Positions 6,786-45,156 of a stretch of 64,000 bases of DNA are shown piece by piece. Under the pieces are notes generated by a model. It was not told where the DNA came from and did no database searches. It worked only from the letters and a program-made list of their open reading frames with translations. Source of the stretch: Escherichia phage Ecwhy_1; sequence record MH791411.1, one strand, 5' to 3'. Each line of letters opens with the position of its first letter. Within the stretch, counting starts at the first letter, position 1. Made by a program: the position numbers and the translations under genes.

Positions 6786-7475
6786 TTAGTCCAGTTTAAG
6801 TTTATTGAGACAATAGGAGATTTGGATAGCTTCACGTGCTGCATCATACAGAGGGTGATGTAATTCCAAACCATTAATACCACATTTTTCTGCATACTTC
6901 ACGAATTTAGCTAACTGCACTGACACAATCTCATCCATTTCGGTGCGAGCTTCTTCATTCAATAAACGCTTCAGGGTTCGTGCGTTTTCAGGAGCATCAT
7001 ATTTCCACAAATCACCAACATTCAATAGTTTTAAGTGATTAGCTTGTAAAATACTACAGTCGAAGTTGCAGCCATTTCCCCAAATTGAATGTTCAACCTC
7101 TTTACCATAACAATCAAAACGGATATCTTTCCAGAAATCGACAATACCATTAGAAGTAAAGATTTGTTTGGATTTACCATTAGGACCGTACAATTCTGGT
7201 GCAACAAGTGCCATAGTACTGGCAACTTCAGCATATGCATTAGGATATTCCTTCTGACATGTATTCATCCAGAAATCCATTGCACCTGCATCTGATTTCA
7301 GCCCAGCGTTGACTTGTGCTTGGTATGGTAACTTAACATATACAAATTGTCTGATATCATGTTCAGGTTTACTTGGAACAACTACTGCTGCATAATTTGG
7401 AATAATAATATCATAACCAGAGTTTTCAGGAGTACCGAGAGCTTCGATATCAACACTAACATGACGGCGTTTCAT
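6786..7475 (-). CDS. dexA: DnaQ-like (DEDDh) 3'-5' exonuclease, DexA-like
   Basis: VSVDIEALG (exo I), WGNGCNFDCSIL (exo II), HHPLYDAAREA (exo III, H-x4-D). Confidence 0.55.
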   Translation of the reverse strand: MKRRHVSVDIEALGTPENSGYDIIIPNYAAVVVPSKPEHDIRQFVYVKLPYQAQVNAGLKSDAGAMDFWMNTCQKEYPNAYAEVASTMALVAPELYGPNGKSKQIFTSNGIVDFWKDIRFDCYGKEVEHSIWGNGCNFDCSILQANHLKLLNVGDLWKYDAPENARTLKRLLNEEARTEMDEIVSVQLAKFVKYAEKCGINGLELHHPLYDAAREAIQISYCLNKLKLD

Positions 7476-7524
7476 ATTTCGTTCCTTATCTGTATATTAA
7501 AAAAGAGTGCGTTTCAATAAGAAC

Positions 7525-7553
7525 ATTATATTGAAAACGCCCTCTTGTGTCAA
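7525..7553 (-). promoter_or_regulatory. sigma70-type promoter, consensus TTGACA-N17-TATAAT on minus strand
   Basis: minus-strand TTGACA = rc(7548-7553), 17-nt spacer, TATAAT = rc(7525-7530); 50 nt upstream of the ATG at 7475; embedded in an imperfect palindrome. Confidence 0.45.
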
Positions 7554-7556
7554 CTA

Positions 7557-8774
7557 TTACTTGTTAGCTTTTTCAGCAATTTCACGAAGAGTATCTTCGA
7601 GTTCATGAGAGAGTTTTGCGATTTCAATCTTAGCACGCTCACGCTCTTCTTTACCTTTCTTCTCTTCAATCAGTACTGCTTCGATGCTATCGATCATTGT
7701 TTTGTGTACATTACGCAATGTTTTAATATCCACGATACCACGATTATTTGCTTTAGCAGCATCCAACATGTTAGTTGCTACCATTTTAGAGTTTACTTCG
7801 AGTAAACGGTTAGTTTCATTGTCAATCAGATTACCCAACTCATTGTCTTTACGTTGACGTTCGGAAATCAACTGTTCAGCCAATTGTGATTTCCATGCTG
7901 GAATAACAACTGATTTCAAATCCTCAAACTTAGAAACAGTGTTGAGGTTTACTTTCTTCATACTCATCAGGCGAGGACCGCTCAGTTCACACATCATGAT
8001 AAGACGACGAATCTTATCTTCCTGTTTAGAAAGAGCTTCACAAATCATCTTTTGCTCCTGGATTGCAAAAGAATCAACGTCAGGGTTCGCTTGCATTGCT
8101 ACCAATTCAGCATCTTGTGCTTTGGTAACTTCTTCCAACTCAACTAACGTATCACGCAGTTCAAAGAGATAGTTTTTGTTTTCGTTGTAAGCAGTGTCTA
8201 GCCATGCACATTCCCCATGCTGGCGGTTAATACCAACCTGAAGAGTGTTCATGATTTCATCAATTTGTTCTTTACTGTTTTTGTACTGATCGCCAACTTT
8301 CTGTTTAGCATTAACAAAAAGTTTTTTGACCCAGCCTACGATTGATTTATCATCCTGTAGACTATCAATATCAACTGCACGAGTCAATGTCAAGATAGTA
8401 GTAATAGACTTACCGAATTCGGTATTATCATCAGTGACGTTAACTTTTGACATGATTTCATCAGCCAAACGTCCTACACCTGCCCCAGCGGTGGTTCCGA
8501 TGGTATTAATATTCTGCACAGTTAACGCCATACTGTTGCCTTTAGTATCTTTCAGTACTGGAAGTGACTTGGACTGTTGTTCGAAGATATCAGTTGCGTC
8601 AATTGTGTGTGCTGCTGTTTTGGTAGTACGTTTGGCAGTTTTGGTTGCTTTGGCTTGTTTAACTGTTGCTTTTTTCGGATTGATTTCTTTCTCGGACATT
8701 GTGTATTCCTCAGTTAATTTAAGATAGTGTTGCTCAGTGATAAACATTCTACAGGCAACACTCAGTACTGTCAA
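7557..8774 (-). CDS. hypothetical coiled-coil protein, weak resemblance to TelA/toxic-anion-resistance family
   Basis: about 400 aa, Lys/Thr/Ala-rich N-terminus then long helical/coiled-coil stretches; true start probably the internal MSEKEINPKK near 8699. Confidence 0.3.
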   Translation of the reverse strand: MTVLSVACRMFITEQHYLKLTEEYTMSEKEINPKKATVKQAKATKTAKRTTKTAAHTIDATDIFEQQSKSLPVLKDTKGNSMALTVQNINTIGTTAGAGVGRLADEIMSKVNVTDDNTEFGKSITTILTLTRAVDIDSLQDDKSIVGWVKKLFVNAKQKVGDQYKNSKEQIDEIMNTLQVGINRQHGECAWLDTAYNENKNYLFELRDTLVELEEVTKAQDAELVAMQANPDVDSFAIQEQKMICEALSKQEDKIRRLIMMCELSGPRLMSMKKVNLNTVSKFEDLKSVVIPAWKSQLAEQLISERQRKDNELGNLIDNETNRLLEVNSKMVATNMLDAAKANNRGIVDIKTLRNVHKTMIDSIEAVLIEEKKGKEERERAKIEIAKLSHELEDTLREIAEKANK

Positions 8775-9910: not shown

Positions 9911-9990
9911 TACTAACCTCTTAATTAATTAAAATTGATACGATACGTACATTCTACATACACACGATGTATTTGTCAAACCATTTTTTA

Positions 9991-10021
9991 AAGAAAAAAA
10001 GGACGCACCTTAGTGCATCCT
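9991..10021 (-). terminator. intrinsic terminator (hairpin + T7 run on minus strand)
   Basis: AGGACGCAC / GTGCATCCT stem at 10000-10021; minus-strand RNA continues UUUUUUUCUU; overlaps the stop of 10010..10828. Confidence 0.55.
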
Positions 10022-10828
10022 TTTGTTACTCTTGTCCTTGTACCACACAAATGTTTTTACTGGTGGGTACTTTTCATTCTTTGGTGGTTCCGGCATATCA
10101 TACACAGTTGCATTTCTGAATTTTAAAATGTATGAATCCATTAAACGAATTATACAATAGTTCATGCACTTTTGTGCACGTTCTTTCCAAAAATGTTTAT
10201 ATGGTTCTGGACACCCAAGATAATCCAATTTGTACATACCCATAGCAGCTTGCATAAAGCGTTGGGCAGAGAACTTACGCTTGTCTACCTTACTAGCTCG
10301 ATGCTGGTCACATGTCCAACTAGAGATACCAGGGAGATGACAGAATAAATCAAAACTCACCATACTATCAAAGTACTTGTTATGACCGTTCAACTCTCCA
10401 TAAAATACCGCTTCGGAAACAGTTTCATATAGTGAGTAATTTGTATGTATATGTTCATTGTCAAATATAGCTTTTAGATCTTTGTAAGTTTCTGGTACTG
10501 GTGGCTCTGGTAACACTTCACCGAACGTCTCTAAGCACCAAATCTTCCACAAGCCTTTCGTAAATTTTACTTCAAGTTCTTTATCGCTGTCAATATAAAA
10601 AGTTTTCTCATTGATAAAAACTTTTCGTGCCATGTATGCTTTGAATACCGCATCAGGGTCGATATCTTCACGTTTGATATCGTCCCATCCTTTACCGATT
10701 CGAGAAATTTCGAATCGTCTCATATACATTCTACATGCCAAATCTTTAGTTGTACTACGATGATACTTGTCGTCTTGGTGAAGTTTGGTAGTCTCATGGA
10801 GAGATTTAAGCATGTTTAAAATTCTCAT
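10010..10828 (-). CDS. hypothetical protein (272 aa)
   Basis: ORF track. Confidence 0.5.
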   Translation of the reverse strand: MRILNMLKSLHETTKLHQDDKYHRSTTKDLACRMYMRRFEISRIGKGWDDIKREDIDPDAVFKAYMARKVFINEKTFYIDSDKELEVKFTKGLWKIWCLETFGEVLPEPPVPETYKDLKAIFDNEHIHTNYSLYETVSEAVFYGELNGHNKYFDSMVSFDLFCHLPGISSWTCDQHRASKVDKRKFSAQRFMQAAMGMYKLDYLGCPEPYKHFWKERAQKCMNYCIIRLMDSYILKFRNATVYDMPEPPKNEKYPPVKTFVWYKDKSNKRMH

Positions 10829-14819: not shown

Positions 14820-14828
14820 ATTATATCA
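14820..14828 (-). promoter_or_regulatory. extended -10 element TGATATAAT (minus strand)
   Basis: rc of 14820-14828 = TGATATAAT in the 63-nt gap upstream of the ATG at 14774. Confidence 0.35.
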
Positions 14829-14837
14829 CATGTTTTT

Positions 14838-15356
14838 CTACCATTTCAAAAATTCATTTACATCTAGTTTATACTTCAAAGAATCAACCATATGCAAATC
14901 AATCAGGAACAAACAATACGAAGCCACTGAACTACCACGCCCAAGACCCCAAAAAATATTGTGCTCTTCCATATAATCAACTAACCAGATCATACATCTT
15001 AAAAGCTTAGTCATGTTGTAATGTTCAAACAAATCAATCTCATACATTACACGTTCACGGGCTTCATCCGATGTACATTTCTGTAAAAAGTACTCACGCA
15101 AGTTGATGTTATCGTACACTGGATCATAACGCCATAGTTCATGGTTTTTATCATGTTCTATTGTATAATCCAGCATACGCTGTTCTAAACCAAATTTTTT
15201 ACAATTATCGTTAAATTTCAATCGTTCCGGTTCATCAATCTCCTGTAGCTGTAAGTACTGAATATCTGCACCACAGTTGATTGCATACACGACTGCATTA
15301 AGGTTACATTTTACATCACCATTGGGACTTATAAATCTGTTTCCTTGTACTTTCAT
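14838..15356 (-). CDS. family-C DNA polymerase (Pol III alpha/DnaE-type) palm, N-terminal fragment ending before the catalytic DxD
   Basis: YEIDLFEHYNMTKLLRCMIWLVDYMEEHNIFWGLGRGSSVASYCLFLIDLHMVDSLKYKLDVNEFLKW aligns by eye to DnaE ...ELDVIIQMGFPGYFLIV...[36 protein letters not shown]. Confidence 0.55.
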   Translation of the reverse strand: MKVQGNRFISPNGDVKCNLNAVVYAINCGADIQYLQLQEIDEPERLKFNDNCKKFGLEQRMLDYTIEHDKNHELWRYDPVYDNINLREYFLQKCTSDEARERVMYEIDLFEHYNMTKLLRCMIWLVDYMEEHNIFWGLGRGSSVASYCLFLIDLHMVDSLKYKLDVNEFLKW

Positions 15357-45101: not shown

Positions 45102-45156
45102 AATTTAATCCTTGTTATTTCTCACAAATGATTATAGCACAAACACTTGTTTTGTC

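Follow-up and report, generated by a model that had tools for sequence, protein, structure and literature searches.

We have identified an element of Escherichia phage Ecwhy_1 in which the intrinsic (Rho-independent) terminator of a TelA-like gene and the sigma70 promoter of the following exonuclease gene most likely share ~55 bp of DNA, with the promoter nested inside the terminator. We give this reading a probability of about three in four. The motifs, the asymmetry in RNA folding, the conservation and covariation among relatives, and the positional homology to plain terminators of other genera were all computed here.

The intergenic element and its predicted action

The window is the whole 64,000-nt stretch of DNA analyzed (GenBank accession number MH791411.1), and minus-strand ORFs cover 88% of it in a simple long-ORF map. 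The 2.2-kb stretch around the element is 99.1-99.6% identical to seven Escherichia jumbo phages (including WPEC3, EC.P1, fEgEco12, vB_Ec-M-J and TH47) and 78-85% identical to the group formed by 121Q, PBECO4, phAPEC6, ph0011 and Turkey5. Relatives whose records carry a taxonomy line belong to the genus Asteriusvirus and have genomes of ~350-385 kb. The window itself belongs to an Asteriusvirus jumbo coliphage (121Q/PBECO4 group). The protein encoded upstream of the element matches PF05816 TelA (E 1.4e-37) and phrog_5890, “tellurite resistance” (E 1.5e-131), and its ATG at 8696 agrees with the annotated start in relatives. The promoter of this gene (Table 1) is the likely source of the transcripts that reach the terminator. 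The protein encoded downstream matches PF16473 (E 4.5e-9) and phrog_255, “exonuclease” (E 4e-32), and is labeled exonuclease, 3'-5' exoribonuclease or “metallopeptidase” in the records of relatives. A preliminary description of this DNA had termed it a DexA-like exonuclease; it is an exonuclease, although its family is Rv2179c-like and “DexA-like” is only a loose label. The gap between the two genes is 81 nt long and contains the -35 box, spacer, -10 box, hairpin, T tract and ribosome-binding site. The order on the minus strand is ...AAG TAA TAG TTGACA CAAGAGGGCGTTTTCAA TATAAT GTTCTTATTGAAACGCACTCTTTTTTAATATACAGATAAGGAACGAAAT ATG.

Table 1. Features of the TelA-exonuclease locus and further promoter-like sites (positions in the window)
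Feature	Position	Strand	Remarks
TelA-like (toxic anion resistance family) gene, upstream	7557..8696	minus	stop codon TAA at 7559..7557
Sigma70-like promoter of the TelA gene, TTGACA-N17-TAGAAT, 11/12	8746..8774	minus	conserved genus-wide in the alignment
-35 hexamer TTGACA	7548..7553	minus	begins 3 nt past the TelA stop codon; invariant in 10 aligned Asteriusvirus sequences
17-nt promoter spacer, most of the hairpin 5' arm	7531..7547	minus	17-18 nt long in all good-quality relatives
-10 hexamer TATAAT	7525..7530	minus	bases 1-2 close the stem, bases 3-6 are in the loop; TATAA(T) invariant in the genus
Predicted transcription start, A7518, in the hairpin 3' arm	7518	minus	7 nt after the -10 box; placed by standard spacing from -10 box to start
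Predicted terminator hairpin	7503..7546	minus	arms 7546..7529 and 7519..7503; 9-nt loop 7528..7520
T6 tract that overlaps the end of the 3' arm and continues directly past it	7499..7504	minus	predicted 3' end of TelA transcript at ~7499..7497
Ribosome-binding site AAGGA	7483..7487	minus	7 nt before the exonuclease ATG; AAGGAAC conserved in the alignment
Exonuclease gene (Rv2179c-like 3'-5' family), downstream, 229 aa	6786..7475	minus	ATG at 7475..7473
Second-class promoter-like sites (position of TGn)	55241, 45139, 38716, 32239, 28306, 21585; weaker 55165	minus	all on the gene strand

The minus-strand TTGACA-N17-TATAAT of the preliminary description was confirmed at 7553..7525, where a promoter scan scored it 12/12, and its distance from the exonuclease gene, given there as about 50 nt, is 49 nt from the -10 box to the ATG. 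The window contains three exact matches to TTGACA-N17-TATAAT, each on the minus strand, whereas shuffled sequences predict 0.01. Consensus sites with at most one mismatch number 12, again exclusively on the minus strand, against 1.55 expected, and this count was reached in none of 100 shuffles. Sites scoring at least 11/12 are enriched 4-fold in intergenic DNA. The gene strand of TH47 carries 28 perfect and 79 11/12 sites of the form TTGACA-N16-18-TATAAT, and the other strand carries 0 and 8, respectively. This set of textbook host-type promoters is unusually large for a single phage genome. At the element itself, the computation thus found both hexamers at 17-nt spacing, in the orientation and at the distance fitting the exonuclease gene, on the enriched strand, and conserved while their neighbors drift. 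The reading as a consensus sigma70 promoter of the exonuclease gene is supported, because the enrichment is strand-specific and intergenic and because the hexamers remain invariant at 17-18 nt despite a changing spacer.

The imperfect inverted repeat noted around this promoter is likewise real. RNA covering 7560..7490 folds at -17.7 kcal/mol (z -4.55), with none of 200 shuffles equally stable, and RNA covering 7547..7497 folds at -15.7 kcal/mol (z -5.95). The repeat had been described as centered on the -10 box; it does overlap the box, but its dyad center (~7524/7525) falls at the downstream edge of the box and not in its middle. The 16-bp stem has one bulged T (7534) and one G.A mismatch (7541/7508), and begins 10 nt past the TelA TAA. 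The feature that decides the interpretation is the T6 run (7504..7499), which the preliminary description did not mention. A stem-loop followed by U6, a stop codon just upstream on the same strand and pairing that is kept in evolution together point to an intrinsic terminator. Its hairpin (7546..7503) includes the spacer and -10 box of the promoter (7553..7525), so that terminator and promoter overlap. RNA beginning anywhere from 7524 to 7518 has a folding energy of 0 kcal/mol ahead of the U tract, as opposed to -15.7 kcal/mol for read-through RNA.

The hairpin is atypical: its upper stem is long and AU-rich, and its loop has 9 nt, compared with 3-5 nt in the other intergenic terminators of the window. 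It was not picked up by a standard terminator scan because its loop is longer than usual. Since it is atypical for the genome and was missed by the standard scan, its termination efficiency may be low. An Rfam search of the element gave sub-threshold matches to generic hairpins only. A potential pairing of the 5' arm with the start of the exonuclease ORF (7459-7472, 86% complementary) was judged a chance match. The G.A mismatch in the stem is due to a G at 7541; TH47 has a T that pairs at this position, and the same stem folds at -19.9 kcal/mol in TH47 versus -15.1 kcal/mol in the window. No public phage record is 100% identical to the 100-nt element (best match, 99/100), and G7541 is therefore either unique to the source genome or a sequencing artifact.

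In the proposed layout, the -35 box would lie just 5' of the stem, the spacer would serve as the 5' arm, the -10 box would sit at the top of the hairpin, and transcription would start at ~7518 within the 3' arm, placing the T tract at ~+15 to +20 of the new transcript. A polymerase arriving from the TelA promoter would copy both arms, so that the hairpin would form before the U tract and the transcript would end at ~7499..7497. Host sigma70 polymerase initiating at the nested promoter would transcribe the 3' arm only and would pass the T tract into the exonuclease gene; as the RNA would contain the 3' arm alone, no hairpin should form and the T tract should be read through. Owing to this fold asymmetry, the same DNA could serve both as the end of TelA transcripts and as the origin of exonuclease transcripts on which the terminator has no effect. 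We infer initiation, termination, the start and end positions, and any coupling at the element from sequence. The promoter and terminator functions probably interfere with each other because they share DNA. A polymerase bound at the promoter would block incoming transcription, or help to terminate it, and heavy upstream transcription would occlude the nested promoter. Blocking or assisted termination and promoter occlusion have both been shown for terminator-promoter overlaps in bacteria.

Conservation, origin and alternative readings

Ten Asteriusvirus sequences, representing six haplotypes, were aligned and then folded individually. All of them keep TTGACA and TATAAT 17-18 nt apart, with the exception of the low-quality “UNVERIFIED” CMSTMSU record. 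A hairpin around the -10 box is present in all relatives (-15.7 to -23.1 kcal/mol), together with a T-rich tail. Two double, pair-preserving changes distinguish the Turkey5/JNE01 type from the 121Q type (compensatory pairs among 5 haplotypes), although the statistical power of this covariation is limited by the small number of independent haplotypes. Phage A4 has a stem that is unrelated in sequence (ATGTGCCCATT / AATGGGCACAT), with 11 bp and a 4-nt loop; the T tail and an unbroken TTGACA-N17-TATAAT are kept, and the -10 box extends from the loop into the 3' arm. Because the A4 stem has been replaced while pairing and hexamers are intact, it is the pairing and the hexamers that are conserved and not the sequence of the stem. 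The A4 exonuclease allele is divergent (56% identity), and similarity between A4 and the window stops at the TelA stop codon and -35 box (~2830-2900 of the A4 locus, L006). These two observations are the reason why a recombination breakpoint seems to lie inside the promoter-terminator element in A4. The record of phage G17 (vB_EcoM_G17; GenBank accession number MK327931.1) annotates an ARNOLD terminator at 102808-102845, in the homologous place. A search of IMG/VR for further haplotypes returned four loci, two of which duplicate known phages and two of which have a different upstream context.

The TelA-exonuclease gene pair also occurs in Klebsiella phage K64-1 (Alcyoneusvirus), Erwinia phage Hallingskeid and Cronobacter phage GAP32 (Mimasvirus). 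A compact canonical terminator follows TelA in each of them (AAAAAGGTTCCACTTCTGGAACCTTTTTTT in K64-1, AAAAGGTACTCTTCGGAGTACCTTTTTT in Hallingskeid and AAAAAAAGCTCCCATTACTTGGGGGCTTTTTT in GAP32), and their TelA-exonuclease gaps hold no promoter-like site above 9/12. Since three sister genera have the terminator without a promoter, parsimony suggests that the terminator is ancestral at this position and that Asteriusvirus later acquired the promoter within it. The stem would have been lengthened, and the loop enlarged, to accommodate the spacer and -10 box. An origin of the promoter by duplication of the TelA promoter was considered and set aside, as the similarity of the two ranked 3rd of 106 (~2.5 sd above the mean), which is suggestive and not decisive.

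The preliminary description had offered an operator or a terminator-promoter overlap as the meaning of the repeat. The overlap is borne out by the T6 run, the stop codon, the compensatory changes, the terminators of the sister genera and the ARNOLD call in G17; the operator is unsupported. As an operator, the palindrome would be bound on both arms, across the -10 box, by a dimeric phage or host repressor that silences the exonuclease promoter, and the T tract would be incidental. We regard this as very improbable. The repeat is indeed a DNA palindrome centered at the edge of the -10 box, the TelA promoter has a repeat of its own in nearly the same register to the -35 box and without a T tract, and a terminator palindrome at yobI/ruvA is a known binding site of LexA. 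However, the half-site TATTGAAACGCAC, with up to two mismatches allowed, has 3 matches in the 64-kb window against 2.2 expected, and hence does not recur beyond chance. AGTGY-N-RCACT frames number 15 in TH47 against ~7 expected, and they coincide with strong promoters at two adjacent sites only. The arms, at 16-17 nt, far exceed typical half-sites, and the sister genera have ordinary terminators at this position. The stem of A4, wholly different in sequence, shorter and differently spaced, retains pairing and the T tail, and an RNA structure therefore fits better than a protein-binding site.

The repeat at the TelA promoter, AGTGTTGC-N21-GCAACACT, surrounds the -10 box (8746-8774 and downstream to ~8725, minus strand). 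Other Asteriusviruses show a paired T/A to C/G change within it (GTGCTGC..GCAGCAC), and an inverted repeat over the -10 region of the TelA promoter is also kept in K64-1, Hallingskeid and GAP32 (L010 505-560, L011 510-525 and L012 170-225), which is a further point in favor of an operator. Termination does not explain this repeat because no T tract follows it, and a repeat spanning a -10 box therefore need not mean termination in these phages.

It could also be that only one of the two functions is real. If the element were a terminator alone, TTGACA and TATAAT would go unused and the exonuclease would be expressed by read-through, as is apparently the case in the sister genera, where K64-1, Hallingskeid and GAP32 have a terminator and no recognizable promoter in the gap. 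About half of the 11/12 matches in the window fall within ORFs, so not every match need be a promoter. Against this reading, which we consider highly unlikely, a 12/12 site is expected only 0.01 times per window, the hexamers are invariant at the correct spacing in six haplotypes, including A4 with its replaced intervening sequence, and the hairpin has been reshaped, with a long stem and large loop, exactly as needed for a 17-nt spacer and -10 box. Conversely, the element could be a promoter alone, with the hairpin directing the processing or stability of read-through RNA (as an RNase III site or 3'-end protector, for example) or arising as a by-product. The long, 16-bp AU-rich stem and large loop, unlike the compact terminators of the window, would suit such a role, and the hairpin processing sites known between early genes of T7 provide a precedent. 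Yet the T6 run abuts the stem and is kept in every relative, where a processing site needs none, textbook terminators stand at the same position in three other genera, and ARNOLD calls a terminator in G17. There is, in our view, little chance that this reading is correct, and we favor a terminator and a promoter that share the same DNA.

Promoters and terminators elsewhere in these phages

The TH47 genome was assembled whole (352,450 bp) and all 388 of its promoter-like sites were tested for a nested hairpin and T tract. The TelA-exonuclease site was the only one with a terminator nested around the -10 box. A second match, at 337119, was rejected, being a -10-like match followed by an ordinary terminator. 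The other 14 intergenic terminator-like hairpins of the window are compact and, where strong promoters follow them, the two stand in tandem, as with the terminator at 10023..9998 and the promoter at 9979. Fold z-scores of 107 strong promoter windows did not differ from those of random windows (median 0.02 vs. -0.16; Mann-Whitney p 0.71). The tail alone shows a slight excess, with z below -3 in 7 of the 107 promoter windows versus 2.75% of controls, and the nested element is the top outlier. The nested layout is not a general design of this phage.

A different fusion of terminator and promoter, AAAAGGGTTGACTTCGGTCAGCCCTTTTTGCTATAAT, is present in TH47 (GenBank accession number MT446416.1) in four copies on the minus strand, with the -35 box at 122882, 127302, 131355 and 138473, and variants of it occur at 74472 and 1006. 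In this sequence, the terminator stem/loop encloses the -35 box, the spacer carries the T tract, and an extended -10 box follows. This geometry is absent from the window.

The window holds further promoter-like features. The preliminary description had pointed to early transcription driven by host RNA polymerase and proposed a count of TGnTATAAT; strict matches number 14 on the minus strand and 3 on the plus strand, and 8 of the 14 are intergenic against 1.4 expected. In a second promoter-like class (Table 1), the box GAGACAAAC (variants AGGACAAAC and GAGACAGAC) stands 11-12 nt upstream of TGnTATAAT in place of TTGACA, and the sites at 45139, 38716, 32239 and 21585 are 13-35 nt upstream of an ORF start. 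By analogy to the variant -35 class of phages CBB and GAP32, these may be the “middle” promoters of the genus. A promoter-containing segment of ~60 nt, GAAAAAAACAT(T/G)GACA(A/T)TATTCGTAATACCTACTATAATGTTGTTATTGTCACTTA..., occurs twice on the minus strand, 78 nt apart (2481-2509 and 2559-2587). One copy of its promoter scores 12/12 and the other 11/12, and the pair looks like a local tandem duplication. At the promoter TTGAAA-N18-TATAAT (14820-14849 and downstream to ~14797, minus strand), the extended -10 sequence GTGATATAATGTT is the 5' arm of a 13-bp hairpin, whose partner arm, GGCGTTATATCAC, lies at ~+8 to +20. This hairpin has a z of -4.0 in TH47 and no T tract after it.

Relation to known systems

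RpoD-like early promoters have been predicted in the Rak2-like jumbo phages CBB and GAP32 (Buttimer et al. 2017, PMC5259590). These have consensus -35 and -10 boxes, often preceded by A-rich UP-like sequence, and are concentrated in presumed early regions, and a second promoter class with a phage-specific -35 box was described alongside them (PMC5259590). The CBB and GAP32 reports differ from ours in that promoters and terminators are listed separately, with no promoter within a terminator, and in that they concern different genera (PMC5259590). The ARNOLD terminator of G17 is the homologous hairpin of an ~81% identical relative, and that record annotates the terminator only and no promoter. 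The published genome descriptions of Asteriusvirus that we consulted contain no promoter, terminator or RNA-Seq analysis, and a keyword search of the literature for Asteriusvirus transcriptome studies found nothing relevant.

With considerable doubt, we raise the possibility that the nested layout is an occupancy-dependent switch that arose in Asteriusvirus when an ancestral terminator acquired a consensus promoter. Early in infection, sigma70 polymerase on the promoter would block or terminate TelA transcription, the stop codon of which is 3 nt from the -35 box. Later, with -35-dependent initiation turned off, the element would become a plain, leaky terminator and the exonuclease would be co-transcribed. 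If this were true, it would, taken with the repeat at the TelA -10 box in four genera, suggest that Rak2-like jumbo phages use hairpins across the -10 box more widely.

The element leaves existing knowledge of transcription unchanged. Its value would lie in being a clean, evolutionarily traceable case of a promoter in a terminator, with plain terminators in the outgroups, a fused version in one genus and two versions of the stem. With the -10 box in the loop and the spacer as the 5' arm, promoter and terminator should be separately mutable, which would make the element convenient for testing the recently proposed coupling of termination to initiation and, in synthetic gene arrays, useful as a compact part. 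For the annotation of 350-kb phages, terminator and promoter calls at the same location need not conflict.

Overlaps between operons are known from the ribosomal/translation operons of enterobacteria. In Salmonella, the tufB terminator overlaps the secE-nusG promoter, an arrangement kept in evolution, and initiation at that promoter falls as more polymerase loads the terminator (Brandis, Cao & Hughes 2019, PMC6735719). As in tufB-secE, the phage element has an intrinsic terminator and the sigma70 promoter of the next unit sharing DNA on the same strand between tandem genes. In E. coli K-12, the sole promoter-like site touching the tufB hairpin is TTGACG-N18-CATCAT, with its -35 box 5' of the stem and its -10 box at the hairpin top, the same nested layout as in the phage. 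We infer this site to be the promoter meant by Brandis et al. (2019). Unlike tufB-secE, the element is from a phage and not cellular, its promoter is a perfect consensus, and it would have arisen within one phage genus from a plain terminator.

Hundreds of “promoter-coupled terminators” have been described in several bacteria, and the proximity of the coupled promoter makes termination at them more efficient (Fletcher et al. 2026, bioRxiv 10.64898/2026.08.19.745784). In these, the termination site is 0-35 bp upstream of the start (mode ~10 bp), the -35 box falls within the stem-loop, and the spacer before the -10 box holds the T tract (bioRxiv 10.64898/2026.08.19.745784). The phage element resembles them as dual-use DNA between tandem genes in which the terminator and promoter of adjacent units overlap. 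Its geometry is not theirs, because the predicted start (~7518) lies ~20 nt upstream of the predicted end (~7498) and the T tract comes after the -10 box; the spacer forms the stem, and the loop holds the -10 box. A geometry of the type described by Fletcher et al. is present elsewhere in the phage lineage, in the fused terminator-promoter sequence of TH47. Overlap of a terminator with the next promoter is thus an already established kind of arrangement, of which this element is a tidy further example that brings with it an evolutionary series.
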